From Eledone cirrhosa (lineage: Eukaryota), in contig OZ024741.1 of the NCBI GenBank assembly GCA_964016885.1, positions 201,872,001 to 201,936,000 of the forward strand: 64,000 nucleotides of DNA, given 5' to 3'. Below, piece after piece: positions 1 through 29,694 of the stretch. How positions within the stretch are numbered: the stretch's first letter is position 1; every line of letters starts with the position of its first letter. A program made the translations under genes and the position numbers. The notes under the pieces are model-generated. The model made no database searches. It was not told the origin of the DNA and saw nothing but the letters and a program-made list of their open reading frames with translations.

Positions 1-1268
1 AGTGGAGAGCCGACCAGGAGGTGTAACTGCCCTGGTAGATCTACGTGCCCCCTCAACAACAGATGCTGAGAACGTAACGTGATTTACCAGTGCAAGGTGA
101 GGATGGACACCTCCAACAAAGCTTATATAGGATTAACCGCTTGTGACTTTAAGACCCGGCTCTACCAACACCAACATACGTTCAGAAACCCGGTCCGGCG
201 ACATGCCACTACACTTTCGGGCTACATCTGGGACCTCCAAGATAATAAAATAACATACAATCTTACTTGGAGCTTACTGTCCAGGGCTAACTCATACACG
301 GGAGGACGCCATCCGTGTAACTTATGCTCATAGGAAACATTACAAATGCTGTTTACGAAGGACCAACTCCTAAACAAAAAAGACGAACTGGTAACTGCAT
401 GCAAACACCGATTGCATAGGACTTACCTCACCCTCAAACCCCCTAACGACCCGGGTGAGTAGACAATGGCTGAAACATCCCACTTGCCGAATAAGATAGG
501 GGAAACCCCAGCTTACATAGGTAGATGTTCCTCTTTTCTTTTCCTCTCTGTTTTCTTCTTCCCTTTGCCTCCTCCTATCAGAGATTTTGTATTACTTTTT
601 GCTACCCAATTCTATAATTTCAAAAATTCTTACTTAGTATCTCCTATTCTCAACTTATTAACCAATTCTATAGAAGTGGCCGAAAAAGCAACACCAACTA
701 AATATAGCAGCTGTTTTAGACTTCACAGTTTTTGTTTTTTATCACTTCTTACTATCCAATTTTATATTTTTATATATCTTTCGTTTATTTTTTTATTGTC
801 TCCAAATCTCAATTGATTTACCTATTCTATAACGTCCCTCCTCTATTTTCTCCAGAACCCTTTTCGCCTACTTCCTCTGACCTACTTTCATACACAATCC
901 TTAGGTTTGACTGTATAGATTTCACTTTCAACACTTGACCGGCTCCACCCACTCCCTCATTACTCTACAGGCAAGTTCAGCCACCCCCACCACCCACCCA
1001 CTGCCATGATAGACTTAACTGTGTTTACAAGAAATCTTGACCAATCCTCTTGACAACTACAATCTTCCCATATAAGGAAGTACCCCTTGAAAAGTTTGGC
1101 TATTTATATACCAGACTAAAAATTCTAATTTAGTTCAGAAATAGCCGTCGAAACGGCTTGAGCTGTGCCGTCGGGGTCATACATTTTCCTATTACCCACT
1201 CTACAACCCTAAGTATTGAGTACTCTGGTACGTTATGTCCATCTGGTTCCTTACCACAACTCCTTCGT
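1..1268 (+). mobile_element. 3' part of a Penelope-like retroelement (dead GIY-YIG endonuclease plus 3' pLTR region)
   Basis: ORF 79-333 IYQC..AYIGLTACDFKTRLYQH..ATTLSGYIW..CNLC is a PLE GIY-YIG domain with in-frame stops; identical segment at 58098+ is preceded by PLE RT. Confidence 0.9.
1082..1177 (+). ncRNA. Degenerate type I hammerhead ribozyme in PLE 3' region
   Basis: Stem I ACCCC/GGGGT, stem II GGCTATTT/AAATAGCC, GAAA, stem III CGGC/GCCG, GUC triplet; core reads TTGAAAA instead of CTGANGA. Confidence 0.7.
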
Positions 1269-1269
1269 T

Positions 1270-1301
<32 letters not shown>

Positions 1302-1531
1302 ACACTTACATATACACATATAGTTACACATATATATACACATATATATACATATATATACACATATATATACACACATATATATACACATATATATACA
1401 CACACATATAGTCATACATATACACACACATACAGTCACACATACACACATAGACACATAATCACACATATAGTCATACAATAACAGTAATAACAGCAAC
1501 AATAATATCAGCAACAGTAACAACAACAACA
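1269..1531. repeat. (TA)n / (TACA)-rich and (AAC)n simple repeats
   Basis: Direct reading. Confidence 0.9.
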
Positions 1532-1553
1532 ATTGTAATAATTCTGAAAATAT

Positions 1554-4500
1554 TTATCTCTCATAATGAATAAAACCAAAATGTTGATTTGTTGCAATAT
1601 GTCCAAAAATTTTGATATTTTTTTCAGAAAGTAGGAGACCATTAACACGGTAGACTTCAATATCTTTATCACTGAGGATTAATTGTAAGTTACTGTCTAC
1701 AGATACTTGGTAAATATTGTTAGTGTCATCTCCTGATGATATTTTGCTTCTTGTTGTTGATATATAAATATTTTCACCATGTGTTGTGAGATAAGATATG
1801 TTATATATATCATATATTGGTGGTGGTATTTCTAATCTCCTGACCAACTGTTGTTTTCTGTACCAATTGATATAACGGTACCATCTCCCCATTATTGCCT
1901 CTAATGTGACAACAACAATGTGTTCATTTGATGTGACACCAATTGCTGAGACTGCCTCCATCTCCATCTTCTCCATCTCATTTTCTCTAAAACACACTTC
2001 AACACTGTATTTCACTCTTCCACTATACATATAAACTATATCTACACAAGGTACTCCAGGGTTATATTTAAAAATATCACTATCATCACCATCACCATAT
2101 AACTCACAGTTATATTCAAACATATTTCTAACACCACTATAACTACACACAAGTTTGTTGTCATTCTTTTTACAAATCATGTTGTAGTACTTTTTAAGTT
2201 GGATAGTTTTAATGTAAGAAATATTTTTTCTGTAAATCACAAGTTTATGACAGTAAAGGAGAATAAAACAATTATCTGACCATCTGCAAATGTCTATTGG
2301 TGTTTCTGGTAATATTTTCCCATGGATTATTTCACCTTCTGTTGTTGTTACTGTGAGAATATTTCTCAACATGAACACTGCTACATTGTCATGTAACATA
2401 ATTAGTTTACTGTAGTAGATGATGTCCCTCCTATATTCCTTAGAATATTCAGTCTCATCAACCTTACATCTCTCAGTATATTTAGATATATCAGGATATG
2501 TAGGATAGGAAAGAGGAAACAATGTTATTCTATGGGGCAGAAACGTCACTGATATTTCATCATTTCCTAACATACACTTTGCCTTGTAATTACCACGTCT
2601 CACCAGTAAAGTGTTAATCATTTCACCTGATGGAGTAATATATCTTGCTTGATTATCAGTTATAATGGCAGGGAGCAGCAGATGAGAATTCACATTTAAT
2701 GTCTCATGTTTCAGAACATTCAATTTGTTGCCATCAACCTGTATGATATGATATTCTGTCAAGTTGATATGTTGACAGAAGTAAATATTTTCTTTTATCC
2801 TCGATATAACACCATAAGGTAAAGAACTGGACCAAACTTCATATTCTGTCAAATCTTCCTTCTTTAGTTGCATTATTTGATATTCATTAGGAAGTGTAAC
2901 CATAATAAATCCTCCTTCTTCTGTAAAACAGACTCCACCAACTAAAGTTTCAACATTTCTGTGACATAACAGTTCCCCATCTCTCTGAAATATTTTAACA
3001 TTACCATAATTGGTTATTTCACACACAACTGTTTGTCCATCATCAGAGATGTCCATATCTTTTATTTTAACAGAGCTTTGGTCTGTTTTTACACGACAAA
3101 CAGGGAACATTTCCCTATTAAGTTCATATAAACCTTCAACATACAAACACTTTGTATTCCAGTCATATCCAATGAACCTTGGACCTTTAGTGTTAATACT
3201 GGTGAAACATATGTCACCCCTATAAGGGGTTTTATTTAAAAATACATCCCTGTATTTACCAGTCTGTGACAAACAAACAATCTGTTTATTATTGTCACCA
3301 AAGTCGTTATATAATCCCCACTGTCCATAAATGTACAAATAATTGTCATTTGTTGTTATACAGGTGTTTGGTGGTATGTCCTCATAATATTGTCTGTGTG
3401 AATGTAAATAATCAGTTTTACAGCTGAAGAAAGTGATATATCTACCATTGTAAAATATAATCTCATTCTTAACATTAACTACAATATCAGAGGTGAGATT
3501 ATTATCATACATATGAAATTGTACGTCTTTGATGAACTTAGGTATGTTTATTTCTTTCTTTACTACCACAGTGGAATGTATTTCATCAATATCAATGACA
3601 AACAATCTATGTCTACCCATATATCTATCTCTATCTCTATCTACACAACTACACACTAGTTGATTGTCTAACAAAGAAGCTATACCATAATAGCTATGGT
3701 CTGTCTTATAAGTTACCAAATACAATGGAAACTCCACTTCTAAAGTTAACAGCTTGTCTGTATCAGTGGTAATGACCAGTGTGTTTGACCCCCAACGACA
3801 TATATGTTTAGGGAGATTGTCATTTAATTTGATAAAGTCAACAAGTTGACCATCAAATGTTAATATTTTGATGTTGTTATTATTCCTGTCATATAATGCA
3901 ATCAGGTTATTTTCAGTAATAACAACCAAACACTTCTCCTCACTATAATAACCTTCCAAACAAGGCGGTGAAAATATCTTAGCTTTATCAGAAACTGTCA
4001 GATCCTGCAGATATAATGTAGAAGAAAACATTTCACTGACACAGATGTTTCTAGAAAATACATCTACCATGTCAATAAACATGTTAGACTGTTTCTTTGT
4101 CACCAGATATACCATCACAGAGTTATGCTTATTTATAGCCAACACACCATCTTTGTCTATCAGATAATGACAAGTTTTATCAATACATCCACCATATAGA
4201 TCAGAAAGTGGTAAAATAAGGCTGAAATCCCTTGAAATACCTCGTTGACCCTTTTTTGATATAGTTTTGTACATAAATATATTTTTCTTAGCCACCATAA
4301 ATATATTTAATGTATCATTGTCTATTGCTAATGACTTTATTTGACATGGGATAGGGACCCTAGAAATTACTTCACCCAGGTTATGTTTTTGAACAGATAC
4401 AATGTCTATATAGTTTGGTTTGTTGTCACAATAACCAACAATTCTACCTTCACCAAACTTCCGTATCTGTACATAAGGGTGGTTTAATGATATAATTCTA

Positions 4501-6581
4501 ACTGTTTTTGATAGGTTTCCAATAAGCCTTAATTCTTTCTCTAGGGGTAATGTGACAGCCAATTGACTAGAACCCCATCTACATATATCTGTAGCTACAG
4601 ATGGCAGATATAATGTAGATAGCACTTTTATTTCTTCTCCTTCTTTCTTAGAAATGTATAATAAGCAAGAATTATTTATGTCAGACACCACCAACTGTCC
4701 GTTGGGTAGATAACATATTTCAGCAATCGCAATTTTATTATCATCCTTTTCTTTGTGTCGTATCGTTGGATTTCTGATATAAGGATTTAACTTTTTTAAA
4801 TGACAAATGGATGATTCACAGTTATAAACAAGAATACTCCCTAGTTTATAGTCAAATAAATATATAGTTCCTTCACAAATACCATTACGAAAGCGAGAAG
4901 CTACCGGAAGTTTTAATTTCCATTTATATTCTCCATAAATATCATAACATGCCATAATAGAGAGTGTAGGGAAGATAACATACAAGTAAAAACTGTCTGC
5001 GTAGATATGATAGGGACGGCTGTTAAAATCAAAATATGTTTCAAAAAGTTCTTCTTCGCCGAAACTAGAATGAAATATTAATTTACGATACTTCTTATCT
5101 AAAATAACAAAATAAATTGTAGTTGTAGCTATACTGACATCACCATGTTCTAATGATTTTAGTTTTTCATATTCTACCTTGTTTTCCTCAATCTTTAATT
5201 TATGGAGCTCATTCATTCCACAAGTGGTCAAAGCCATAAACCTATCTAATACCACATGACATATTTGAATGTAATTCTTTTTTAAAGAAAAGAGTTTACC
5301 TTTTTTTAGTTCAGGACATGTAATATATTGTATATTTTGTATATTTCTAGTTTTATTGAATAGAACCAGAAATTTGCTGGAGTCTATTCTGCAAAATCTA
5401 GATGGTTGGGAATTAAATGTTAATTCCTCACCTTTACAAAATTCTGTCCCTCTGTAAGTGTATAATGTCCCACTGTAAGTGTATAATGGGTTTAGATTCC
5501 TATATACAACTAATACAGAAGATTGTGACATAGGCAGAATCTTATCTATGTTGTTGAGATATTCTATATAAATTTGATCATTCAGACAGGGTGTTGGAAT
5601 CTTTTGAAAATAAGACATCTTTGGCCAAAATTTTTTTGTCTTAAAACTATGTATCTGACCAGAAACGTCAGATACTAACATGCTATTTCTGTCAAACCAA
5701 GCATATCGAACATTTATCCCAATATCTTTTTGAGACACACCACCTATTGAGGAGACCTTATAAATAACATGTCCTTGAAAGACATAAAAATAATTCCGGA
5801 ACACAGTGATGCCAGCAGGAATGTCTATAGAATGGAGGTGAAATTGAAATAATTTATGACCATTCAGATCATAACAAATGATAAAAGTAAAATTATAAAA
5901 TATTACTAAAACACGATCTTCTGGTCCTATAGCTATATCTCTAGGATTATGTTTCACCTCAAATTGCTTAATATATGTATTATCAACCCAATTTACCATA
6001 TAGATTGTTTTTTCTAATAGTTTAATACCTATGAAATTACTACCCTTAAAATATGAAATTTTATGAAAACCATATTCAAGAGTTTTTATTTCAACACTAG
6101 AGGGCGAGAAGAATAAAATTTGGTTTCGAAATGGTAATGTGGCAATTACCGTATTTTGCTTAAACCTATCAATATCAGTGACCACTGATGAAAAGTGTAC
6201 CATACAACAAGGACCAGTTGGTGGTGTATATTTTAATGTCAATATTCGAGGGATATAGGACATGGTACCATTGTTTATAGGAATAATAAATGTTACCGGC
6301 AAAGCGATATCATCTACAAGGTCTACATTATTATCTATTTTAGGGTTTCCATTTTGTAAAGTAGGAACATGTATATTCTGCTTTTGTAGATCAATTTCTT
6401 TTTCTAATTCTACATTACTAAAAATGTCCACTCCCATACTAGGAATATTAACTGAACATTGACACATTTTCACTATCGTAGATTCAATACTACTAACTTC
6501 AATTTCAGTCACTGGAAGTAACTTTTCATCCCCTCCATGTACTGTTTCTATTTCTACTATACTTATCTTGGTATCCTCCAT
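1554..6581 (-). CDS. Intronless 1675-aa protein of about six tandem NHL/TolB-like beta-propeller units
   Basis: 5-kb open frame in about 30% GC DNA. Recurring motif PSRFCRI (aa ~393), ATDICRWG (~663), PKHICRWG (~924), VGGVCFT (~1214), PIDICRW (~1428). IAEICYLPNGQLVVSDINN resembles the propeller of mollusc TRIM/B-box proteins. Confidence 0.88.
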   Translation of the reverse strand: MEDTKISIVEIETVHGGDEKLLPVTEIEVSSIESTIVKMCQCSVNIPSMGVDIFSNVELEKEIDLQKQNIHVPTLQNGNPKIDNNVDLVDDIALPVTFIIPINNGTMSYIPRILTLKYTPPTGPCCMVHFSSVVTDIDRFKQNTVIATLPFRNQILFFSPSSVEIKTLEYGFHKISYFKGSNFIGIKLLEKTIYMVNWVDNTYIKQFEVKHNPRDIAIGPEDRVLVIFYNFTFIICYDLNGHKLFQFHLHSIDIPAGITVFRNYFYVFQGHVIYKVSSIGGVSQKDIGINVRYAWFDRNSMLVSDVSGQIHSFKTKKFWPKMSYFQKIPTPCLNDQIYIEYLNNIDKILPMSQSSVLVVYRNLNPLYTYSGTLYTYRGTEFCKGEELTFNSQPSRFCRIDSSKFLVLFNKTRNIQNIQYITCPELKKGKLFSLKKNYIQICHVVLDRFMALTTCGMNELHKLKIEENKVEYEKLKSLEHGDVSIATTTIYFVILDKKYRKLIFHSSFGEEELFETYFDFNSRPYHIYADSFYLYVIFPTLSIMACYDIYGEYKWKLKLPVASRFRNGICEGTIYLFDYKLGSILVYNCESSICHLKKLNPYIRNPTIRHKEKDDNKIAIAEICYLPNGQLVVSDINNSCLLYISKKEGEEIKVLSTLYLPSVATDICRWGSSQLAVTLPLEKELRLIGNLSKTVRIISLNHPYVQIRKFGEGRIVGYCDNKPNYIDIVSVQKHNLGEVISRVPIPCQIKSLAIDNDTLNIFMVAKKNIFMYKTISKKGQRGISRDFSLILPLSDLYGGCIDKTCHYLIDKDGVLAINKHNSVMVYLVTKKQSNMFIDMVDVFSRNICVSEMFSSTLYLQDLTVSDKAKIFSPPCLEGYYSEEKCLVVITENNLIALYDRNNNNIKILTFDGQLVDFIKLNDNLPKHICRWGSNTLVITTDTDKLLTLEVEFPLYLVTYKTDHSYYGIASLLDNQLVCSCVDRDRDRYMGRHRLFVIDIDEIHSTVVVKKEINIPKFIKDVQFHMYDNNLTSDIVVNVKNEIIFYNGRYITFFSCKTDYLHSHRQYYEDIPPNTCITTNDNYLYIYGQWGLYNDFGDNNKQIVCLSQTGKYRDVFLNKTPYRGDICFTSINTKGPRFIGYDWNTKCLYVEGLYELNREMFPVCRVKTDQSSVKIKDMDISDDGQTVVCEITNYGNVKIFQRDGELLCHRNVETLVGGVCFTEEGGFIMVTLPNEYQIMQLKKEDLTEYEVWSSSLPYGVISRIKENIYFCQHINLTEYHIIQVDGNKLNVLKHETLNVNSHLLLPAIITDNQARYITPSGEMINTLLVRRGNYKAKCMLGNDEISVTFLPHRITLFPLSYPTYPDISKYTERCKVDETEYSKEYRRDIIYYSKLIMLHDNVAVFMLRNILTVTTTEGEIIHGKILPETPIDICRWSDNCFILLYCHKLVIYRKNISYIKTIQLKKYYNMICKKNDNKLVCSYSGVRNMFEYNCELYGDGDDSDIFKYNPGVPCVDIVYMYSGRVKYSVEVCFRENEMEKMEMEAVSAIGVTSNEHIVVVTLEAIMGRWYRYINWYRKQQLVRRLEIPPPIYDIYNISYLTTHGENIYISTTRSKISSGDDTNNIYQVSVDSNLQLILSDKDIEVYRVNGLLLSEKNIKIFGHIATNQHFGFIHYER

Positions 6582-6624
6582 TGTTTATATCTAGTTACTA
6601 CAACTGCTTATATATCATATAATA

Positions 6625-6665
6625 TAATGAAAATTATTGTCTACAGCGCTCAGGTCCACTACAAT
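6625..6665 (-). mobile_element. CR1/L2-type LINE 3' tail remnant just upstream of the large ORF
   Basis: AAATTATTGTCTACAGCGCTCAGGTCCACTACAA matches the LINE tails at ~33375-33410 and (reverse) ~51428-51465. Confidence 0.6.
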
Positions 6666-6889
6666 ATATGTATGTGTGTGTGTGTGTTTTGGTGTGTAAT
6701 GAGTGACGTGTATGTTGGTAACTAATGAGCTTCAATTCCAATTTTCAAGATTTCAAGTTTTCCAGATCAGTTTACCAATTTCCTACCAAATCTAAAATGA
6801 AATAAAGGGAAAAGAAACATTGATTAGTTTTGTGAAAATATTAGTTTTTCAAGAGAATATCTTTTGTATGTATGTATGTATGGTCCAAT

Positions 6890-6929
<40 letters not shown>

Positions 6930-6930
<1 letters not shown>

Positions 6931-8416
6931 CTTGGGGAGGGTCATATTTGTGTAATATTGCCAGAATTAATAACAGAACACACTCACTGTATGGTTGGTT
7001 TTCGCTTCTCGCTTCTGTGTCTTTTATATCGGTAATCTATCTTACTCGGTCCTCAATGTTGCCATTGACTGACCGACGGTCAAAAATAATACAGATACAA
7101 TATAGACACAAACACATATATATAGTTTATCATAAATCTTTCGTTGCACATCTGCAACATCGTCAGTGGTGTTATATTTTCCTCCTGTTGTATTGTATGT
7201 CTACGCCATTTTTATTCAGTCTGTCTATATATTTATTTATTTAATTGCTTGTTTGTTTATTTTATTTTGTCTTCTTTGCGCATGCGTTTGCGTGTGTGTA
7301 TAGTGTTTTGTTTGCTGTGTGATGGGTGACTAGTGTGTGTTTATGTGCTTGTTGTTATTGTGCTTGTGTATGTATTTATTTATTTATTTATTTATTTATT
7401 TTATTTTATTTACTTATTTATACTTCTCTTAGGTCAGTGTTGTTTGTTTGGGTGTTGTTGTTATTCCATTCATTCTTTTTGTTTAGCCTTGGTCTTCTAA
7501 TTTCTATCTCACTGGCCTCTCTGATTTGCCTATCTGCTGCGTCATTTCTATGTTTAGATATTATTCTAATTTCTATGTTGTCTATGTTACCGTCATGTTG
7601 TTGTCTAGCATGTTCGTATAGTACTGACCCGTTTTTTCGTCCTTTTAGTTCCCCCCAATGTTGGTCTATTCTTTCACCTATGCTACGAGCTGTCTCACCT
7701 ATGTATGTTGTTGTCATGTTTCTGCAAGTACCCTCTGTACATCTTATGCTATAGACTACGTTTCTAGTTTTACAGTTTATTCAGGGGTTCACCTTACATA
7801 TGATACATTTCCTATTGGTACAGTGGGTTTTCTTAAAAGGGTAGGTTTTGCTGATCAGGGATTTTATGGTGGTTCCTGGCTTTTCTACCACCTTTATTTT
7901 TAAGTGGGTCTTTCTCAGGGCCTTTCTACACTGGTTAGCTAATTTCCCTCCAGGGGTAGCGTCCACAAACATGAGACTCTGGTATCTCTGGTGGCTTTCC
8001 CTATCTTATGTCTAGCCCTATCTAAGCTATTCCATGATTTGCTCCTGTATAATGGGCAAATTCCTTTCATGTCCAGTTCTATGAGGGTCTTATACTTTTC
8101 CATGGCTCCTTCGTATACTCTGACTCTGTCTCTTTGGTTGTAGCCAGAGAACTGCATGCGGTTGATGAAGTGTTGGATGTGTCTTTCCATTTCTGTTGGG
8201 TCGCACATGCGGGACACATTCTTCATCACTCGTACCAAATCAGCGATCAGAATATTAAACTTAGCACTACTGAGTTTTTGAGTGTCAGGTATTTGGTGGC
8301 CATGGGTTTAGCATAGTGTGGTGGAGAATTTGGGCTCTCTCGTCTATAGTGTTAATCCAGAGTTCTGTGTCTAATACAGGTAGTCTATTGTTAGGGTGTT
8401 TGGAAGGGAAGTCGAT
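6930..8416 (-). mobile_element. 5'-truncated Penelope-like element (RT thumb plus GIY-YIG, frameshifted)
   Basis: ORFs 7939-8238, 7781-7972, 7418-7717: YIGETARSIGERIDQH..RQIREASEI..LNKKNEW. Confidence 0.85.
7128..7171 (-). ncRNA. Minimal type I hammerhead ribozyme
   Basis: Minus strand CACCA-CTGACGA-T-GTTGCA(GATG)TGCAAC-GAA-AGATTT-A-TGATA, located 3' of the PLE ORF; stems I and III imperfect. Confidence 0.65.
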
Positions 8417-8488
8417 ATATATATATATATATATGTATTATAAATATTATATATATATATAATATACATATATATATATATATATATA

Positions 8489-9038
8489 TCGAGACCTTTG
8501 GCGGTACTCAGTAACAGAGAAGACCCGCCTTACCTAAATACAAAGTAAAACCTACTAGTCGGTAGGCATCTCTAACAAAATACACCCCCGTCCCACCCCA
8601 ACCGCACCGCCCCCTTCAATGCAAAGTTATGTTGGTGCCACAACATCCAGGCCGAAACAAATGAGATCGTGTAGGTGTCACGACAAAAAAAACACAGTCC
8701 ACGCTGTAATGTGGCCGTGTAGGCAACACGGTAAAAACCTCTCAGTCCCACACTGTAAATGTGGTTGGTGTTAGGAAGGGCATCCAGCTGTAGAAAACAC
8801 GCCAGACAGTCCACGCTGTAATGTGGGCGTGTAGGCAACACGGTAAAAACCACCCAGCCCCACACTGTAAATGTGGTTGGTGTTAGGAAGGGCATCCAGC
8901 TGTAGAAAACCCGCCAGATAGTCCTATGCGAGCAAGACAACCTCTTGCCTCAAGTGGGAAAACCCCCGTCCAAACACATGCAAGCGTGGAACAGGGACGT
9001 GGAACAGGGACGTTAAACGATGATGATGATGATGATGA

Positions 9039-9041
<3 letters not shown>
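8489..9041 (+). mobile_element. RTE LINE 3' end with internal ~110-bp duplication and (GAT)n tail
   Basis: Near-identical to 13270-13712. Confidence 0.85.
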
Positions 9042-9079
<38 letters not shown>

Positions 9080-9082
9080 TAA

Positions 9083-9130
<48 letters not shown>

Positions 9131-9206
9131 TTATAACTATATATATATATTATAAATATTATAAATATATATATATATTATAAATATTATAAATATATAT
9201 ATATAT

Positions 9207-9238
<32 letters not shown>

Positions 9239-9271
9239 AAGAACTGACTAACTGCCTGATGAGGTCATAGC

Positions 9272-9550
9272 CACACACACACACACACTGCAAAGTGGTT
9301 GTGGAGGTGCCACGGCAAAAAAAGCACCCAGCCCACACTGTAAAGTGGATGTGTAGGTGCCACGGAAAAAAGCACCCCCCTCTCACTGTAAATGAGGTTG
9401 GTATTAAGAAGGGCATCCAGCTGTAGGAATCAAGCTAAAATCAGTCCCTGTATGAGCAAGACAAAGTCAGCCGACTGGACACTGCTCACAACAGGACAAT
9501 CCGTCTAACCCATGCTAGCGTGGAAGAACGAACGTAAAATGATGATGATA
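9272..9550 (+). mobile_element. RTE-tail-related SINE/LINE fragment
   Basis: Shared CACTGTAAA..GGTTGG..AAGGGCATCCAGCTGTAG motif and (GAT)n tail. Confidence 0.7.
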
Positions 9551-9558
9551 TATATATA

Positions 9559-9597
<39 letters not shown>

Positions 9598-9607
9598 TAA
9601 TATTATA

Positions 9608-9638
<31 letters not shown>

Positions 9639-10187
9639 CGATTGGTAGCTGCTACACTGCAGCTACAACTTCGTATTAAGAGAGGGGCTAAGACATGGGA
9701 GGAATTTGAGGAATAAGTGGGAATTGGACTTCTGATCATCAAACAAAATATTCTGGCAGACCATCTGCTGATTTTGTAATAAAGAGTCCTTCTCCACACC
9801 TGCTCCGCAGAGAGGAGAGTCCTTGATTGGTCAGTAACGAATAAAAGTTACTGTCCTCCTCCTACAGATCAACTCAATAAATAAGTTAACTGGGAGGAAA
9901 CATAGTGATAATCACTGAGGATGTCACAGAAATGTGTGACGAAAGAACTTTAAGAAATTACATTTATATTTATAGTTTTAATTTGGCCAATCAATGATAA
10001 ACATTGATTGCCAGGTAATTATTTATAAAAATAAAAAAAGAAGTACTGAAACTGAACTGAAAACCAAACCAAACAATGAATGCGTTTTATTATTTTTTGG
10101 CAATATTTGGACATCACCCTCACTAAATATAACAATATCTGTTTCAACACACGATTTCATATAAAAAACCTTGCAAAACAATATATA

Positions 10188-12163
10188 AGAGAGAAGCTAG
10201 ACGTCAGGTGTACTTAGCATGCAGGGAAGCAGAGAGTAGGAGGTTTGCCAATGTTCTACGATGGGAAGATCAGAGACGTGTGGTGTTCCACATTGCAAGG
10301 CAATGTGTCAGTGCAAATCAGGATGTTGTTGGCGATAAGTGTGTCCGGAATGATCAAAAGAAGGAGGCCTGTAAATGTCATTATGAGAGACTGATGAATG
10401 TAGAGAACGAATGGGACAGAGAGGAATTACCCCCAGTAGACCCGACAGAGGGACCAGCTATTGAGATTGATGAATATAGGGTACAAGAGGAAATTAAGGA
10501 AATGAAGAATGGTAAGGCTGCTGGACCGTCGGGGATAATTGCTGAGATGCTGAAGGCATCAGGAGAAGTAGGCACTAAACTAGTTGTACGCATCATTAAT
10601 CAAGTTATATATGGTGGTGTCATACCCAAAGACTGGTGCAGCAGTATTCTCATAAATTGCTACAAAGGTAAAGTGGATGCTCTAGAGAGGAGCAATTATA
10701 GGGGCATAAAGCTGATGGATCAGGTTATGAAAGTGGCAGAGAGAATATTAGTGCAACTGATTAGAGAAAGGGTCAATTTAGATGAGATGCAGTTGGTTTT
10801 GTGCCTCGGAAAAGTACAACAGATGCCCTCTTCTTAGTGAGGCAACTACAAGAGAGGTTCTTAGAGAAGAATAAGCCACTATACTTAGCTTTTGTTGACC
10901 TAGAGAAGGCCTTTGATAGGGTACCCCTATCTGTCATCTGGTGGTCCCTATGGAAACTAGGTGTAGAGGAATGGCTTATGAGGACAGTGCAAGCTATTTA
11001 CAGGGGTACTGTCAGTAAAGTGAGAATAGGAATGGAGTTTAGTGAGGAATTTCAGATACAAGTAGGTGTACATCAAGGTTCGGTCCTAAGCCCACTCTTG
11101 TTCATTATTGTCCTCCAAGCCACAACAGAGGAGTTTAAGACTGGATTCCCGTGGGAACTTCTCTATGCTGATGATCTGGTTCTTATAGCAGAATCGGTAG
11201 AGGAACTAGAGAATAAATTCTGGCTATGGAAACAGCAGTTCGAATCAAGAGTCCTGAGAGTGAACATAGCTAAAACAAAAGTGTTGATAAGTAGAAGAGA
11301 GGACAATACTCTGATTCCATCAGGGAAACGGCCATGTTCGATATGTAGGAAAGGAACTGGCATACATTCCATAAAATGCATGCAATGCAGATCATGGGTA
11401 CACAAGAGATGTAGTGGGATAGCAGGAAAACTAACAGGTAGGGAAAACTACTTATGCAGTAGATCTACAGGGAAAGTTGGCAGTAGTAATCGCTGTGATA
11501 GACTCATTTTTCCAATGCAGGTGGGTTCTATAGAAGTGGTTGATAGCTTCTGGTACCTAGATGAACAGATTAGAATGGGAGGGGGATGGGAGTGTTCCGA
11601 AGCCATAGTATCTAGAATAAGGACGGGTTGGAAGAAGTTTAGGGAGCTGCTGCCTCTGTTACAAAGAAGGGTTTCTCCCTGCATACGAAATGACAGTTAT
11701 ATGATGCCTGTGTGAGATGCACGATGCTGTATGGTAGTGAGACATGGGCAGCAACTGCAGAAGATATGCGATGGCTGGAGAGAAATGAAGCAAGTATGCG
11801 CCATTGGATGTGCAATGTCAATGTGCGTGAATGACCAAGCATAGACGAGTTGAGAAAGAAACTGGGTATAAGAGGGATAAGTTGTGGTGTGCAGGAGAGA
11901 AGACTGAGATGGTATGAACATGTGATGCGCATGGAGGATGACCGCTGGGTAAAGAAGTGCCAGGAAGTCCCAGTGGAGGGAAGACTCAGTAGAGGTAGAC
12001 CACGAAAAACATGGGTGGAGGTGGTGAGAGCAGATCTCAGATCGCTGAAACTCACCGAGGAGATGACGAAGGACCGTGACAAGTGGAGAGATGATGTGCT
12101 GAATAAGACCCGCCCAACCCTTGCAAGCAGGGGAAAGCGGGCGTAAAATGATGATGATGATGA
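10188..12163 (+). mobile_element. 5'-truncated RTE-clade LINE (RT with Cys-rich PHD-like insert), disrupted
   Basis: KAAGPSGI, NYRGIKL, AFVDLEKAFDRV, GVHQGSVLSPLLF, LLYADDL, RLRWYEHVMR, RGRPRKTW; (GAT)n tail. Confidence 0.95.
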
Positions 12164-12264
12164 TATATATATATATGTATATATATATGTATATATATAT
12201 ATTATTCAAAATGTTAACAAATGAAAAATATTCGCATAATCAAAATATATACTTTATTATATAT

Positions 12265-13711
12265 TGTTCATCAGGGCTCTGTTCTTAGCCCCCTACTATT
12301 TATTATTGCCCTCCAGGCTATAACAGTGGAGTTCAAGACCGGCTGTCCATGGGAACTCCTATACGCAGACGATCTAACGCTCATAGCTGAATCAATGGCC
12401 GAGCTAGAGAAGAAATTCCAAACATGGAAGCACGGCCTAGAATCAAAAGGCCTTAAAATTAACCTGGCTAAGACTAAAGTTCTAGCTTGTAAGAAAGAAA
12501 ATAAGGCGGCGGTCCCCTCCGGGAAGTGGCCATGCGCAGAGTGTAGGAAAGGCGTAGGTAGAAATTCAATTTTGTGTCCCAAATGCAAAGTTTGTGTGCA
12601 TAAAAGATGTAGTGGGATCACAGGTAAGCTAACTAAGAACATAGATTTTACATGTGGCCGGTGTTCTGGGGCAATAAGTAGCAGCAAGTGCCCACAAAAT
12701 ACTAGCTCTTTCAACTGCGCAGAGGGTTCTATAGAAATAGTGGACAGCTTCCGTTACCTGGGTGACAAAATAAGCAGTGGGGGAGGGTGCTCTGAAAGTA
12801 CAGTAGCTAGAGTCAGAACTGGGTAGAAAAAGTTCAGAGAGCTTATACCACTATTAGCCGCTAAAGGGTTCTCCCTAAAAATGAAAGGCAGGCTGTACGA
12901 GGCCTGCATACAAACAGCAATGTTGCATGGCAGTGAGACCTGGGCATTGTGTGCAGAGGATATACGCAGACTAGAGAGAAACGAAGCTTGCATGCTCCGC
13001 TGGATGTGTAATAGTAATATACGTGAACGACAAAGCATAAACGAACTAAGGAAAAAATTAGAAATAAGAGGGATCAGATGTTGTTTACTCGAGAGAAGGC
13101 TACGTTGGTATGGTCACGTGATGCGCATGAAGGACGATAGCTGTATAACAAAGTGCAGGGCAATAAAGATAGACGGTAGCCACGGAATAGGCAGACCCAG
13201 AAAAACCTGGGACGAGCTGATAAACTCCGACCTCACACACTTACACCTCACCAAGACAATGTCACTGGACCGAGACCTTTGGCGGTACTCAGTAATAGAG
13301 AAGACCCGCCTTACCTAAACACAAAGTAAAACCTACTAGTCAGTAGGCATCTCTAACAAAATACACCCCCGTCCCACCACCCCCACCCCATCCACACCGC
13401 CCCCTTCTATGTAAAGTTATGTTGGTGCCACACCATCCAGGCCGAAACAAATGAGATCGTGTAGGTGTCACGACAAAAAAACACACAGTCCACGCTGTAA
13501 TGTGGCCGTGTAAGCAACACGGTAAAAACCTCCCAGACCCACACTGTAAATGTGGTTGGTGTTAGGAAGGGCATCCAACTGTAGAAAACCTGCCAGACAG
13601 TCCTATGCGAGCAAGACAATCACTCTTGCCTCAAGTGGGAAAACCCCCGTCCAAACCCATGCAAGCGTGGAACACGGACGTTAAACGTTGATGATGATGA
13701 TGATGATGATG
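12265..13711 (+). mobile_element. 5'-truncated RTE LINE inserted into the fold-back arm
   Basis: HQGSVLSPLLF, LLYADDL, RLRWYGHVMR, GRPRKTW; 3' UTR; (GAT)n tail; one stop at 12824. Confidence 0.95.
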
Positions 13712-13914
13712 ATTTCAAAGGTACTGTGCTGTTTTTTTCAGTACGTCCTCATCAGACAAAATATATGATTTGATATATGCTACGGTCTTGATTATTCAAT
13801 TCCCGTATTGGCAGTTTATTATTCAATTCCCGTACTTGATTATTCAATTCCCGTACTGCCAATACGGGAATTGAATAATCAAGACCGTAGCGGTATGTCA
13901 TATATCAAATCATA

Positions 13915-13981
13915 TAGTTTGTCTGATGAGGACGTACTGAAAAAAACAGCACAGTACCTTTGAAATATATATAATAGAGTA
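13915..13981 (+). ncRNA. Type I hammerhead ribozyme (fold-back right arm)
   Basis: TAGTTTGT-CTGATGA-GGACGTACTG..CAGTACCTTT-GAA-ATATATAT-A-ATAGAGTA. Confidence 0.75.
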
Positions 13982-14191
13982 TATATTTTGATTATGTGAA
14001 TATTTTTTACTTGTTAACATTTTGAATAATATTAAAAACTCCAGGAAAACCTAGTGTTGAGTGCTTCTAATCTATTGTAAAACTGTATTCGTTGAGTAAT
14101 CAACAAACCATATTAATCTTTGGTCATATGTATATATATATATATATTACTTCAAAATATTAATAAATATAGACATTCATGTGATCAAATA

Positions 14192-14257
14192 TATTTTATT
14201 ATATATATTTCAGAGGTACTGAGCTGTTTCATCAGTACGTCCTCATCAGATAAAATA
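14192..14257 (-). ncRNA. Type I hammerhead ribozyme with intact core
   Basis: TATTTTAT-CTGATGA-GGACGTACTGA(TGAAACAGC)TCAGTACCTCT-GAA-ATATATAT-A-ATAAAATA; perfect 8-bp stem I, palindromic stem III, AUA triplet. Confidence 0.85.
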
Positions 14258-14374
14258 AATTTATGTCTGACGTACCTCAACTGTGCTGATGGTTCAATTC
14301 CAGTTTTGGAATATATATTTTGTGTATATATATATACACACACACATATATATGTGTGCTACACACAAATACTT

Positions 14375-14645
14375 GGGGAGCAAGCATGCCTGCATGCTTG
14401 GTCCCCAGGTATTCGTGTGTGGCTTTCAGGTGGGGTTTGGAGAATGCAGATGGTGTACTTCTGGTTCAACCAGGCCTCAGTCAGGACAGGATTGATGCAG
14501 AGCTAGGAATTCAATTTTGTCTTAGCTCACATTGATAACCTCGGACTTGATCTCCAATCCTAGGTACCTTAGGGCAGGGATGACCCACTGGAGGTCCTCA
14601 GCAACAGATTCTATCAAGCCTGCTAGAGTCGCATCATCCATGTTT
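14375..14645 (-). mobile_element. CRE-like non-LTR RT fragment
   Basis: MDDATLAGLIESVAEDLQWVIPALRYLGLEI resembles the YxDD region of CRE-clade RT. Confidence 0.6.
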
Positions 14646-15045
14646 CTATTTCGGAGGAAGTGTGATGTGTAACATCCCGTCAAATGCCAGATTACTATAG
14701 TGAAGGCCAACAGAAAGAAAGCAAAGTGATCTGAAGAAAGTGAAGAAGCTCGACAGATCCCCTCTAGTTGCTAACTTGAGGCAGACAACCCCTTGGTACG
14801 ACCACAGGAATTGGTAGCAGAAAGACATTTGGATGAAAAAGCACACTAAGCTAATATATGAATTTCATACATTAAGATGGAAGGAATTGGACACACCCAA
14901 TAAAATTTAATCCTTTTATATATAAACCGGCCGTAACCGGCCAGAATTCTCTCATCTCTTTCTGTTTAAACCAGCTGTAACCAGCCCTGCATACTGATGT
15001 TAAGGTATTGTTCACAAAATAAATAACATGAAAATCTCATAGATT

Positions 15046-15972
15046 CGATATTATGTGAGATAAAGCCTTTACTGTGAAAATACAATAGTATATATAGAGT
15101 AATGTAAATGTTATGTAAGATATTATGTGAGGTAAAGCCTTTACTGTGAAAATACAATAGTATATATAGAGTAATGTAAATGTAATGTGAGATATTATGT
15201 GAGGTAAAGTCTTTACTGTGAAAATACAATAGTATATATAGAGTAATGTAAATGTTATGTGAGATATTATGTGAGGTAAAGCCTTTACTGTGAAAATACA
15301 ATAGTATATATAGAGTAATGTAAATGTTATGTAAGATATTATGTGAGGTAAAGCCTTTACTGTGAAAATACAATAGTATATATAGAGTAATGTAAATGTT
15401 ATGTGAGATATTATGTGAGGTAAAGCCTTTACTGTGAAAATACAATAGTATATATAGAGTAAAGTAAATGTTACGTGAGATATTATGTGAGATAAAGCCT
15501 TTACTGTGAAAATACAATAGTATATATAGAGTAATGTAAATGTTATGTAAGATATTATGTGAGGTAAAGCCTTTACTGTGAAAATACAATAGTATATATA
15601 GAGTAATGTAAATGTTATGTGAGATATTATGTGAGATAAAGCCTTTACTGTGAAAATACAATAGTATATATAGAGTAATGTAAATGTTATGTGAGATATT
15701 ATATGAGGTAAAGCCTTTACTGTGAAAATACAATAGTATATATAGAGTAATGTAAATGTTATGTGAGATATTATATGAGGTAAAGCCTTTACTGTGAAAA
15801 TACAATAGTATATATAGAGCAATGTAAATGTTATGTGAGATATTATGTGTGGTAAAGCCTTTACTGTGAAAATACAATAGTATATATAGAGTAATGTAAA
15901 TGTTATGTGAGATATTAAATGAGGTAAAGCCTTTACTGTGAAAATACAATAGTATATATAGAGCAATGTAAA
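15046..15972. repeat. 72-bp minisatellite, about 13 copies
   Basis: Unit AAAGCCTTTACTGTGAAAATACAATAGTATATATAGAGTAATGTAAATGTTATGTGAGATATTATGTGAGGT; 24-aa periodicity in the overlapping ORFs. Confidence 0.95.
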
Positions 15973-16326
15973 TACTAAAGGGTTAATATAAATGTGTTAG
16001 TATTTTTGATTAATTAAAAGTTTTATAAGAATATTTACCTCAATCAAGGAAATGTTTTTTCTCAGTTCTTAGAAATGGCTTGTTGATTCACAGAAAACCG
16101 CAGCTTTTAAAACTTCAGTTCATACAGGCAGAGAAATGAAAGCTTTCGTCAAGTGTCTCCTTTATATAATAAACCAGGCCAGATATTTGATAAACTTTCT
16201 GGGTTAATCATTGGCTAAACCATTAATTAAGCCATATATATATATATATGGGTGTGTGTATATATATATGTATATATATATATGTATATATATATATGTA
16301 TATATATATATGTATATATATATATG

Positions 16327-16378
<52 letters not shown>

Positions 16379-16637
16379 CATAGAATAATGTACAAATGTC
16401 AAGAACTAGAAAAGCGTATGAGTCATGATCCACACAGACACACATCTCCTTCTGTCTTCTCCTCCTCCTCCCCCTGTCTTCTATACACACCCACCACATA
16501 TTACATTGACAACGCAGGTTTGATATAATACTACCCTTGGTTATTATTGACCTATCACTGATTCGCAGAAAAATCACCCTGAGAATGGGGGGGCGGGGTT
16601 TCTGAGAATCTGTCTTTTATCTAAGTTCATAGGTCAG

Positions 16638-16673
<36 letters not shown>

Positions 16674-16755
16674 GTATATATATATAATATAATGTATATA
16701 AATATAATGTATATATATATATACATTATATATATTATATATATAATATATACAT

Positions 16756-16844
<89 letters not shown>

Positions 16845-16845
<1 letters not shown>

Positions 16846-19800
16846 CATGAAACGAAGTTCTGTTTAAATCATTTATCTGCTTACAATTGTTTCTTCCAAA
16901 CCGAGGTTTGAAGTCTTCGGAGCAATTATTCAGTGATTTTTAACATACTTGACCTCCTTTTCAACACAAGAGACATATAGAAACATATGTATATATTGAC
17001 CCACAGTGGGTTGACATCCATTATAATAATATAGCATGGTAATTTACATACAAAGATTACAGTCATATTAAAGGACAAAATTAAAGTTAAAATTAAAATT
17101 AAAATAAAACATTGGCAGTCTACTAAGATAAAGCAAAAGGAAAGTTTGGAGTAGCCAGTGTATGCAACAGTCACACGTGTGGCATGCACGCGTGTCCTAT
17201 TTATACAAGATTATAGTGCGGCAGATTGTTACAAGTAAAACAAGCAGTCAAAGCAGGCAATTAAGAGCATCATGGGGGCTGAACTGGTTAAGCATTATTC
17301 ACACACACCTGTACGATATAGAAGCCCGTGTGTGGAGAAACACCAAAAATATCAAAAATATTACAAATGAGAAGCAAAACAGCACCACTGTCCTCGTACA
17401 CACCACCACTCTCACAATCCAGGAAACGCAATTTATAGACTACATGTCCATCTCACAATCCACGATGATTCAACATTGGGTGCCTGGTGAACCATGCTAG
17501 AACATCACAGCTTGTCGTTCTTTAATTCGATTCCATAGAGTAGGTTGTTTTTGTTGTGAGAGGTGACATCGTATTATATTCCGGAAGTGTGTGTGTGATT
17601 AAGGAGAGTTAATGCGTAAGGGGAGGTAACTAGCTGATTCCTATAGCTAAATTTATTATCCTAAAGTACATTAATGGTGTTTCAAATGAGTTCTCATCAT
17701 ATAAGGTTATAATCAATTACTAAATTTAAGTATCTTATCTATAAATTACAGTGTAGTCTATCAAGAAGTACTAAAGGTGTTCATATTAGGATGATTACCT
17801 TCTATCATAGAGTGCCCCCACCGAACATTCCACGTGAAGAGTCAGATCTCCAAATCAATGATCTTTGTAAGTGTAGTCCACCCGCAGGACCTGGCAGGGT
17901 CTTATTAGAATCACTTCTATATATGACTCCTGGTAAGTTCTGGGTCATTGTGTGACTGATTGCATGGCAAAGTTAAATATCACTAGGGTAGTCCAGAGAT
18001 CAATTCTCACTTACAAAGACACTGATCTGACCATCAAGTCATACATGTATTTATAACTCATACATCACCTGTACATAATTCATTGCACTCAGCATATCGA
18101 TTATATAGCTCTTTTATGTTAATAAATTAATTACTTAATCTTCCATTTATCCAATGATGGCACTACATACGCAGGACAATGTTAGCACAACCAATTCCGT
18201 GCTTAAAGTTTACATTGGTGTAATGCAGTCTAAGCAATTGAAGCCCAATATACCAAAAGTAGAAGTACATGGGGATATATCCAAGGTGAAAGGTACTAGG
18301 AGGATGTCACTATTTGCGTTAAAGTGGATTAATGGGTGTGGAGATGAGGTGTAAGGTGTGCCCCTGATGATTGCTGCTAGAGGTGGTGTCGGGTTCAAGT
18401 CTGACATTGTTATATATTGGGTTTAAAGTTTTGGAAGGAGTGTCGGAAGCGGTGTTGGCAAGACGCGAACACTTCTGATTTTTTATTAAGGAGGTTATGG
18501 TTTGAAAAGATGATAGTATGGGTCTGTAGTAGACAGAGGGTACAAAATTTATTAGGTGGTTTGTACGATGACCCGTTACCTATCACTTCCCATTTAAGTG
18601 TATATGGTTTATTTTTAGTTTTTAGATAGTGTATGTAGCTAGATAGTGAAGTGGAGTTGGCTAGACTGTGTTTTTTGAAAGAGTGGAGGTGCGAATTGTA
18701 TCTGGTTTTGAAGCAGTTTGAAGTAGAGCCTATATAGGTTTCAGAAGAGTTGCTAGTTGTGACTGTGCATGAGTATATGATATCCTTGGTTAAGCATTTT
18801 TTATCTAAAGGGCAGGTTCTATTTGATCTACAGTTACAATTATTCTGGGTGTTAGTCTGCCGGTTATTATGTTGTGTAGAAGTCTGGATGGTAGCTATAG
18901 GGTTATGGTTATGTGGGTTGACGTTCCCAGCGTTATTGTTTACACTAGTGTTATTACTATTATTTCTATTGATATTAGGGTTAGTTGCTATAATGTTATT
19001 TTGAAGGTTTATCGTCTGTTGTGATTTAGTTTGCTGGAAGTAAGAATTAATTTTTCTTTTATTGCTACTAGCTATGTGGTATGCTATGTTAGGCGTAGTA
19101 GAGTAGGAGATTTTAATAGTGTTTTTTGTTTAAAAGGCTATGGTACTTATGGCCGGATGGGAAGTTTTTATCTAGTAGTGAGAAGAAAGCCCTAGGTAGG
19201 TTGGTAGAGACGTTTAGATTGAAAGGAGGGTTGAAAAATGTATTATTTCTTCTTCTATTTTTGTTTTTTATGTCTGGTGAGTTGTTTCCTTTTATGGTTC
19301 TATTGTAATTTCTGTGGTGTGGGTTACTTTTGTTTGCATCTTCCGTATTAGTGTGTGTGTGGTTGCTATTCCAATTACTAAATTTCCTCATGGACATGTT
19401 GTGCGAAATAATGTTGTAGCTATGTGTTTTTGTAGGTAGGAACTCGATCTCTATATTATGGCCTGATCTAGCTAATGCCTGATTATAATATTGCCAGTTT
19501 TTGCTAAATATGTTTACGTCATAGGATAGATTAGAGATTCTATTAGATACTCCCTTAGAGATAGAGTTTAATATAGATCTAGGGTGGTTAGACTTGGTAT
19601 CTACGTAAATGAGTTTTTCATTAGGTTTGTGGAAAGGTGCATATATCTTTGAGTCTAGGTAGAGGGTGGCGTCTAGGAAGTTAACATTTCTAGTGTTTTT
19701 GTCCATGGTAATACTAAGGTTATAGTTTTTGAATGTCTTGTGCAATAGTTTTCTAGTTCTTTCTATATTGAATTTTTTATAATCTATAAGTAGAAGTGCA

Positions 19801-20565
19801 TCATCGCGGTACAAACCACCGTTGAGGTATGGAAGGTCCTTATGGATTTCGTTAAGTAAATATAGGCCGACTAAATCAGTGACCTGCGCCGAGTCACTAG
19901 ATCCCATGGTTATGTCGAAGTTGTTTTGCGTATCCTTGTGGGTCCATAATTGGTCTTCAAAGGTGATTACTGTTTTACGGGCCGCAAGTATGACATTAAT
20001 CTGGGGTCTAGTCAGGTCACTATTGTCCATGGCCATGATAAGTGCCTTATTTAATAGGATAGGGGAAATAGAGGTGTAGTATGAATTGATATCAAATTGA
20101 ATAAATTTTTTATCCTTGCTATCCTTGATATTTTTGCTTCTCATTTGTAATATTTTTGATATTTTTGGTGTTTCTCCATACACGGGCTTCTATATCGTAC
20201 AGGTGTGTGTGAATAAGGCTTAACCAGTTCAGCCCCCCATGATGCTCTTAATTGCCTGCTTTGACTGCTTGTTTTACTTGTAACAATCTGCCGCACTATA
20301 ATCTTGTATAAATAGGACACGTGTGCATGACACACGTGTGACTGTTGCATACACTGGCTACTCCAAACTTTCCTTTTGCTTTATCTTAGTAGACTACCAA
20401 TGTTTTATTTTAATTTTAATTTTAACTTTAATTTTGTCCTTTAATATGACTGTAATCTTTGTATGTAAATTACCATGCTATATTATTATAATGGATGTCA
20501 ACCCACTGTGGGTCAATATATACATATGTTTCTATATGTCTCTTGTGTTGAAAAGGAGGTCAAGT
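16845..20565 (-). mobile_element. Penelope-like element with 5' inverted segment
   Basis: ORF 19113-20183 FDITMGSSDSAQVTDLVG, GGLYRDDAL, VNFLDATL, SNHP; GIY-YIG relic ~18620-18850; 16947-17379 is inverted at 20132-20565. Confidence 0.92.
16878..16924 (-). ncRNA. Minimal type I hammerhead (core variant) at PLE 3' end
   Basis: TGCT-CCGAAGA-C-TTCAAACC(TC)GGTTTGGA-A-GAA-ACAATTGT-A-AGCA; U4C change in core. Confidence 0.7.
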
Positions 20566-21241
20566 CTCTCATTTCCTGTCTCTAACATCTCAGTTGTCCT
20601 CTCTTGAGACATTAGCCTCTCAGTTGTCCTCTCTTGAGACATAAGTCTCTCACTTCCTGTCTCTAACATATCTGTTGTCCTCTCTTGAGACATAAGTCTC
20701 TCACTTCCTGTCTCTAACATCTCAGTTGTCCTCTCTTGAGACATAAGTCTCTCACTTCCTGTCTCTAACATCTCAGTTGTCCTCTCTTGAGACAAGTCTC
20801 TCACTTCCTGTCTCTAACATCTCAGTTGTCCTCTCTTGAGACAAGTCTCTCACTTCCTGTCTCTAACATCTCAGTTGTCCTCTCTTGAGACAAGTCTCTC
20901 ACTTCCTGTCTCTAATATCTCAGTTGTCCTCTCTTAAGACATAAGTCTCTCACTTCCTGTCTCTAACATCTCTGTTGTCCTCTCTTGAGACATAAGTCTC
21001 TCACTTCCTGTCTCTAACATCTCAGTTGTCCTCTCTTAAGACATAAGTCTCTCACTTCCTGTCTCTAACATCTCTGTTGTCCTCTCTTAAGACATAAGTC
21101 TCTCACTTCCTGTCTCTAACATCTCAGTTGTCCTCTCTTGAGACATAAGTCTCTCACTTCCTGTCTCTAACATCTCAGTTGTCCTCTCTTGAGACATAAG
21201 TCTCTCACTTCCTGTCTCTAACATCTCAGTTGTCCTCTCTT
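20562..21241. repeat. 51-bp (some 49-bp) minisatellite, about 13 copies
   Basis: Unit AAGTCTCTCACTTCCTGTCTCTAACATCTCAGTTGTCCTCTCTTGAGACAT. Confidence 0.95.
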
Positions 21242-23339: not shown

Positions 23340-24000
23340 AGATAAATACACACACAGTCACACATATACATTTACACAAACACACACATACAGTCATGAT
23401 AGCGTTCGGTGAATTGGAAACGGGAGGGTAAAACAAGTATAATGTTTTATTTATTTATTAACAACAGTTTAACTCTTTTTTTTAAAACTCATTTGTATAA
23501 AAATGTAATATAATGCTTACAGAACGAAAACACAAACAAATATAATATATACAAAGGAAAGGGAAAATAGCTCTTCCAGCGCATCTCCCTTACCATCCTC
23601 CGGAGAAACGTCTTCGCCATCCTGTCCGCCGAGGTTGTGGGGATGCCAGCACGTGGACCCCATTTGCTCATACAGATTAATAGGTAAAGTTGTAAACTAT
23701 TATGATAATGTAGTTAGCTAACAGAACACGGTAGCAAAATAGTCACTAACTGTGACGTCCCATTCACACAAATACACATACTTTCACACATATATATTTA
23801 CACAAACACACACATACAGTCATGATAGCGTTCGGGGAATTGGAAACGGGAGGGTAAAAGTACAACTTTTTATTTATTTATTAACAGTTTAACTCTTTTT
23901 TTTTTTTTAAAACTCATTTGTATAAAAATTTTATATAATGATTACAGAATGAAAACACTAACAAATATAATATATACAAAGGAAAAAAAGAAAGAGAAAA
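23340..24000. repeat. Local direct duplication of ~210 bp (23345-23560 vs 23770-23985)
   Basis: CAGTCATGATAGCGTTCGG..GGAAACGGGAGGGTAAAA..CTCATTTGTATAAAA occurs twice. Confidence 0.8.
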
Positions 24001-24059
24001 ATACACAATCACGTAATACACACATCTTAGACCTCATAGAACAATATGCGGGCGAAAGA

Positions 24060-24575: not shown

Positions 24576-24774
24576 AAATAGGACAGTGTGTGTATGTGTA
24601 CGCGCGAGTTTGTCGGTGTTCTTAAATTAGAGACGTGTGTGTGTGTGTGTGCCACTGTTTTTAAGTTAGAGACATATATGTGTGTATCCCTTTTCTTCCT
24701 TTTACACACACATTCATTCACACAAACGCACATACACATTGTGTGATGGACGGGTGGACAGAAGTCCCTCAAAT

Positions 24775-27199: not shown

Positions 27200-27214
27200 C
27201 ATTATATATATATA

Positions 27215-29640: not shown

Positions 29641-29694
29641 AATATCACTTGTATGAATACTTCATATGATTGGAAAAGGTTTTTATCACTGATA

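Follow-up and report, generated by a model that had tools for sequence, protein, structure and literature searches.

The gene and its genomic surroundings

The window analysed here is a stretch of 64,000 nucleotides from Eledone cirrhosa. Its minus strand carries, from 6581 down to 1554, a stop-free open reading frame (ORF) of 1,675 amino acids, which ends with a stop codon at 1554-1556 (Table 1). The initial annotation had described a single 5-kb ORF, and we confirmed that the frame is uninterrupted. No GT..AG joint was listed inside it. The protein contains the previously described motif P-x-D/H-I-C-R-W, or sequences like it, at P393 (PSRFCRI), A663 (ATDICRW), P924 (PKHICRW), about residue 1214 (VGGVCFT) and P1428 (PIDICRW). 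The exact tetrapeptide ICRW occurs three times, and none of 20,000 shuffled sequences contained it more than once. Neither a signal peptide nor a transmembrane helix had been noticed before, and hydropathy heuristics, used here in place of SignalP, agreed: the best 19-residue Kyte-Doolittle mean was 1.38 and the N-terminus was not hydrophobic.

The sole Pfam match of the ORF was an NHL match in unit 3 that fell under the cut-off (E = 0.027). RING, B-box, NACHT, NB-ARC and EGF/LA modules had no Pfam match in the ORF, and a NACHT/NB-ARC NTPase with an effector domain was not found by Pfam in the ORF or in the scanned relatives. A sequence search of the PDB with the ORF protein gave nothing significant (best E = 0.14). 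Four contig sets from one study, of unrecorded kind, cover the ORF and include variants of both paralog types; they may derive from the very animal whose genome was assembled, and we counted them neither for nor against transcription. Some relatives in O. sinensis have isoforms in RefSeq, which only hints at RNA support for those relatives.

Table 1. Positions in the window of the gene, the units of its protein and the tandem duplication
Feature	Position	Strand	Evidence
Single-exon ORF, 1,675 aa	1554..6581	-	Open reading frame
N-terminal aa 1-95, predicted disordered, without the 87-aa segment of older relatives	6297..6581	-	pLDDT <50 for aa 1-96
Unit 1, aa ~96-315, predicted six-bladed propeller, most diverged	5637..6296	-	Strand pattern; 9.7 bits against cuttlefish TRIM propeller
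Unit 2, aa ~336-590, predicted six-bladed propeller	4812..5576	-	Model; HHalign 71% to unit 4; 15.9 bits
Unit 3, aa ~603-862, predicted six-bladed, conserved	3996..4775	-	HHalign 91-95% to units 4 and 6; 33.8 bits
Unit 4, aa ~866-1152, predicted six-bladed NHL-like propeller, hypervariable top-face loops	3126..3986	-	Brat match; selection tests
Unit 5, aa ~1160-1348, short, four recognisable blades, low model confidence	2538..3104	-	Model; 25.6 bits
Unit 6, aa ~1351-1675, predicted six-bladed, hypervariable top-face loops	1557..2531	-	Structural matches; HHalign 95.6% to unit 4
Second tandem copy, continuing to 64683	59655..64000	-	ORF identical apart from a 2-bp deletion near 60205, which disrupts the reading frame in unit 6
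One 58.1-kb period of a four-unit tandem segmental duplication	1..58097		Sequence comparison

The gene is one of four tandem copies, the others differing from it by 1, 0 and 2 substitutions in the ORF (>99.9% identity). The tandem units are 53-58 kb long and 98-99.5% identical, carry unit-specific insertions, and span 264 kb without N runs. A pure assembly duplication is unlikely, given the lack of N runs, the divergence of the units and their specific insertions. The array may represent haplotypes placed in tandem. The neighbouring tandem copy, at locus L048, matched the window without a substitution over 7.4 kb of the gene and its upstream DNA but differed at 16 positions downstream of the gene (window 1-1553), a pattern suggestive of unequal crossing-over or gene conversion.

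Within 1..58097, the scanned long ORFs other than the gene were transposon relics or repeats. The relics comprise a reverse transcriptase with a PHD finger (12218-12826), a weak GIY-YIG match (18410-19129), a weak Tc3-type transposase (27594-28376) and an integrase (43682-44716). Tandem arrays lie at 15047-15973 (period 72 bp) and 20562-21241 (about 50 bp). The unit to the left of the window contains a Helitron (L056:1532-8269, plus strand) encoding a Rep/Pif1 helicase with a C-terminal UCH domain, in frames of 711 and 1,533 aa separated by one stop. The other three tandem units lack it, so it probably inserted recently.

A survey of copy number showed that the gene is multicopy. Besides the tandem array, we found a 97% copy on a small contig, about 14 young paralogs at ~88% nucleotide identity, one distant paralog and decayed fragments. 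The young paralogs share flanks, and retroposition was rejected as their source for this reason. The small contigs may hold alleles of chromosomal copies. In the distant paralog (L044:2541-7647, at 68.8 Mb of G000:C2), the frame is broken near aa 1290 in the assembly. The old decayed fragments, with several stops each, lie in G000 at 63.8 and 197 Mb of C1, 227 Mb of C2, 37.7 Mb of C3 and 23.9 Mb of C4.

Six units with predicted propeller folds

The protein had been described as about six concatenated TRIM-type propellers. We found six homologous units, of which five are predicted to be six-bladed and unit 5 shows four blades. HHalign comparison of the family profiles linked units 3, 4 and 6 to one another at 91-96% and unit 2 to unit 4 at 71%. 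Units 1 and 5 were weak, at 30% and 41%; the 21 reversed controls did not exceed 5.8%. Unit 1 starts at about residue 96, with its motif near residues 135-141, instead of at about residue 120 as first supposed. The 214-residue spacing between the last two motifs is short because unit 5 shows only four blades, in a region that the model predicts with low confidence.

Two overlapping AlphaFold2 models were used, covering aa 1-1165 (mean pLDDT 59.7, pTM 0.35) and aa 600-1675 (62.2, 0.45). Both consisted of four-strand blades throughout. Their confidence is modest, and the relative arrangement of the units is not reliably predicted. The blade counts (six in units 1, 2, 3, 4 and 6, four in unit 5) come partly from the sequence pattern where confidence is low; for example, the last blade of unit 3 was assigned from the pattern rather than from the model. 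Low confidence was also seen at aa 320-388 in the unit 2 region and at aa 1-96, where no helices were predicted.

Structural matches were obtained for units 4 and 6. In both models the ten best structural matches of unit 4 were TRIM-NHL domains, and it aligned with the NHL domain of Brat at Z 21.2 (rmsd 3.5, 246 residues aligned). A search independent of Foldseek also placed Brat and Mei-P26 at the top, with an unrelated six-bladed enzyme tying for third. Unit 6 aligned with solved propellers over the whole propeller (Z 16-17, rmsd 3-4, ~230-260 residues aligned). For units 1, 2, 3 and 5 the predicted folds are based on the pattern of strands and on sequence homology. Structure predictions and homology together support the tandem TRIM-type propellers that the initial annotation had proposed. 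Whole-model Foldseek matches to megalin/LRP2 and DDB1 (TM-scores 0.11-0.18) were rejected as reflecting architecture only.

In Brat, ligands bind the top face, which is built from the BC and DA loops (PMC4015489), and we defined the top face of each unit by the same loops. L031, L032, L033, L038 and other young paralogs carry an acidic/basic heptad-like repeat of 65-128 aa at the position of residue 1536 of the window protein. Inserted into one of the top-face loops of unit 6, this repeat differs in length among copies. The window copy does not have it, so the earlier statement that the protein has no coiled coil is limited to this copy. Unit 6 of Argonauta proteins contains another, different repeat insertion.

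Distribution of the family

Octopus and Argonauta were the only genera to yield full-length relatives, in line with the suggestion that the gene is lineage-restricted. Word-indexed searches recovered 48 relatives, each from Octopus, among 5,334 candidates, and 66 relatives (64 Octopus and 2 Argonauta) among 8,000, with ~35-58% identity over the best local alignment. A search for shorter homologs found none among 2,853 candidates. All relatives are annotated as uncharacterised or hypothetical, and the family has no name.

In a FastTree phylogeny of 41 proteins, the clade of the window gene formed an expansion apart from the Octopus clusters. The distant paralog L044 grouped with a gene present once in each of three Octopus species. 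Octopus has a second conserved gene of single-copy type, for which no close match was found in the E. cirrhosa genome under a stricter filter. At the level of the sequences compared, the family is one of lineage-specific expansions.

We found no literature on 12 LOC identifiers of the family, and no description of it in listings of the openly accessible topic literature. NHL, TRIM, propeller and B-box are absent from the main text of Albertin 2022 (PMC9068888), and family identifiers from the supplements of PMC9712504 (three of four files) and PMC9699675.

Origin from a TRIM propeller

We scanned 1.84 billion representative proteins by HMMER with a family profile of which units 1 and 2 were not part, and obtained 36 matches. 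Twenty-eight had E values of 1e-10 or better; the 23 of these with names were all from Octopus or Argonauta, while one had no name and four were not looked up. The best match outside the family and the WD40 proteins was a cuttlefish RING/B-box TRIM with one NHL propeller (P0102 = CAE1315789.1; E = 4.9e-7). All six unit profiles matched the propeller of P0102, at 9.7-55.7 bits, and reversed controls gave at most 1.6.

The absence of RING and B-box noted for the ORF was extended to six frames of the window and 40 loci, where pattern and phmmer searches were negative and P0102 was detected as a positive control, although very short upstream exons could be missed by these tests. Among 79 proteins, only P0049 contained a RING pattern; it is an ankyrin+RING protein and possibly a merged gene model. 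Because all six units match P0102 and no RING or B-box was found, the family likely stems from a TRIM gene whose propeller-coding part was duplicated internally several times and whose ligase end was lost. Internal duplication is still going on, as shown by the paralog L041 (G000:C27:17485000-17494999), which contains a 1,042-bp segment (aa ~153-507, units 1-2) four times, with broken frames.

Older relatives have an 87-aa helical-looking segment at the N-terminus, which is absent from the clade of the window gene. In the E. cirrhosa genome a profile of the segment matched only L044. The idea that it is a remnant of the TRIM coiled coil found no support, as it did not match the coiled coil of the cuttlefish TRIM. 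Its sole link to molluscan B-box/NHL proteins was an Atlas lead below 0.9. In four Octopus database models (P0017, P0033, P0049 and P0097) the family is joined to C2H2 zinc fingers, DUF4371 or ankyrin+RING; these may be merged gene models. The ankyrin-RING fusion, if real, would provide an effector.

Diversification of two predicted faces

The alignment used to analyse selection combined 12 young paralogs with the 97% copy and the window copy. It excluded the remaining three tandem copies, a rearranged copy, a copy truncated by a gap, the distant paralog and the fragments, and codons within 3 of any indel were dropped before omega was estimated. A comparison of dN/dS between paralogs had been recommended, and it was informative: omega was 18.1 on the top faces of units 4 and 6 (145 codons) against 1.02 in the rest of these units (286 codons). 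The variants on these faces were 93 nonsynonymous and 3 synonymous, compared with 132 and 41 elsewhere (binomial P = 4.5e-5). Columns with at least three residues numbered 22 of 144 on the top faces and 0 of 286 in the rest of the two units. Synonymous variation was not raised on the top faces (3 of 144 against 7 of 286). A site model flagged 21 sites, 17 of them on these faces, and 16 of 25 in-frame indel sites were located there as well. Unedited DSSP loop classes agreed (17 of 114 top positions, 0 of 77 bottom positions).

Recombination is present among the aligned paralogs. We used as a null a neutral simulation with frequent tree switching, which represents heavy recombination. Its 20 runs reached an omega of at most 2.1 and an LRT of at most 63, and the observed top-face values were 18.1 and 141. 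The whole-gene M2a test was discarded as evidence; its LRT of 302-312 was within the recombination null of 200-391 (8 runs).

Because the choice of units 4 and 6 and of the loop borders was made with the variation in E. cirrhosa already known, the real test came from other species, for which the classes were fixed in advance. Between Argonauta paralogs, 34-42 of ~222 top positions of units 4 and 6 differed, compared with 1-2 of 220 in units 2, 3 and 5. The corresponding values in O. vulgaris were 53-63 of ~228 and 5-8 of 222. The difference had P < 0.05 in 13 of 14 pairs, which share ancestry and are not independent; the exception was a near-identical pair. In the conserved single-copy gene the top-face bias was much weaker. 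Judged by these substitution patterns, the predicted propeller faces of units 4 and 6 are under diversifying selection in three lineages.

Many of the young copies appear broken. Ten of the 12 young paralogs have a frameshift or stop, one is fully open and one is open until an assembly gap; these lesions may be real or may be assembly errors. Outside the two faces, pN/pS of the young copies was 0.85, not significantly below 1 (P = 0.2). Purifying selection was visible only in deep comparisons (dN/dS 0.44).

Possible functions

The initial annotation had guessed at an immune or sensor role and at RNA binding. The first guess gained support from the diversifying selection on two faces; the second was weakened, as the variable faces are not net basic. 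The results fit a family for variable recognition in which genes are often gained and lost, with intracellular defence as the most likely setting. Because two predicted binding faces change far faster than the rest of the protein, we propose, with about an even chance of being right, that the six-propeller family is a cytosolic defence sensor or restriction factor that would bind foreign proteins on the faces of units 4 and 6. The protein would reside in the cytosol. A fast-evolving foreign protein would be met by the variable loops of units 4 and 6, in which aromatic and charged residues are frequent, and units 2, 3 and 5 would serve as a conserved scaffold or docking site. Since the protein has no ligase or NTPase of its own, the target might be trapped, or a separate effector recruited. 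Pathogens would be the likeliest driver, a proposition on which we would be evenly divided.

Somewhat more tentatively, incirrate octopods might possess their own class of variable intracellular receptors, built on a six-propeller TRIM-derived chassis with two antibody-like faces, independently re-expanded in each lineage and forming a main cytosolic non-self repertoire. Bivalves offer well-described examples of large variable receptor families. The octopod family would amount to tens of unannotated genes per genome, with variable sites indicating where ligands would bind, which makes it directly testable what octopods recognise inside cells (or, under the rival considered next, which germline conflict is involved). 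It would also be a case of a TRIM that lost its ligase end while its recognition domain was multiplied six-fold within one exon.

The same variable-recognition architecture might face an opponent in the genome or in reproduction, through control of transposon proteins in the germline, a drive/suppressor system or gamete recognition. We regard this as rather unlikely, though deserving serious attention. The amplification is very young, the four tandem ORFs being >99.9% identical; many copies are broken, the surroundings are rich in transposons, and the fly germline is described as the site of Mei-P26 action. However, diversification affects the same pair of faces in Argonauta, Octopus and E. 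cirrhosa and leaves the six-unit frame intact, which fits a persistent external opponent.

It is improbable that the proteins are multivalent RNA-binding regulators in the manner of Brat or TRIM71, each paralog being adapted to its own, possibly viral, RNAs. The nearest solved folds are RNA-binding TRIM-NHL domains, and by simple counts the top loops of unit 2 are net basic (14 K/R and 7 D/E) whereas those of units 4, 5 and 6 are net acidic. The top surface of RNA-binding NHL domains is electropositive (PMC4015489). In crude counts, the top loops of the window protein have 14 K/R against 20 D/E in unit 4 and 20 against 26 in unit 6, and both variable faces are rich in aromatic residues. The lack of a net basic charge on these faces makes RNA regulation less likely, and the rapid charge-switching substitutions would suit protein targets better.

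A mostly non-adaptive explanation, in which redundant segmental duplicates decay and mutable GC/GA-rich loops mimic selection, seems very improbable. It would account for the 10 broken copies among 12 young paralogs and for the scaffold pN/pS near 1; several loops are low-complexity repeats and recombination is present. But relaxation cannot reach an omega of 18 or a ratio of 93:3. Synonymous changes in the loops were not raised, codons next to indels had been removed, and the bottom loops are nearly invariant. The pattern was also seen again in two other lineages, so that decay is largely refuted for the family. Only a slight chance is left that the protein is secreted or lies at the cell surface, with a role in venom, mucus, sensing or adhesion, and resembles the multi-propeller ectodomains of LRPs: megalin/LRP2 came first in the whole-model Foldseek search, but with a TM-score of 0.16 and an rmsd of 37, which reflects several propellers in a row, while none of 79 proteins had a hydrophobic N-terminus in a simple test and the units likely derive from a TRIM.

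Comparison with known systems

The closest structural likeness of unit 4, as predicted, is to the six-bladed propellers of TRIM-NHL proteins (Brat, Mei-P26, TRIM2/3/71 and Thin), at Z 19-21, rmsd 3-4 and ~250 residues aligned. By sequence, all six units are homologous to the propeller of the molluscan RING/B-box/NHL-like TRIM CAE1315789.1. Unlike TRIM-NHL proteins, the octopod proteins have six units instead of one and no RING/B-box, their top faces are hypervariable and non-basic, and the genes are multicopy with high turnover.

TRIM5 and the fish finTRIMs are antiviral expansions with positively selected B30.2 loops. They resemble the octopod family in having a TRIM-derived C-terminal recognition domain, variable loops and lineage-specific duplication. 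However, they use the B30.2/SPRY fold and keep the RING/B-box/coiled-coil part that the octopod family does not have.

In Podospora, the HNWD genes (het-d and het-e) form a multigene family of non-self recognition with diversifying selection on the interaction surface of a beta-propeller (PMC4986451), as is seen on the predicted faces of the octopod proteins. HNWD proteins place near-identical WD40 repeats behind NACHT and effector domains, whereas the octopod units are deeply diverged and NHL-like, vary in two of six units, and lack a detected NTPase or effector domain. We regard this resemblance as analogy, not homology.

DDB1/SF3B3 and LRP2/LRP6 also have several propellers per chain, as seen by Foldseek. 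They differ from the octopod family in sequence (8-11% identity, at the low TM-scores given above) and belong to other propeller families, and the LRPs are extracellular.
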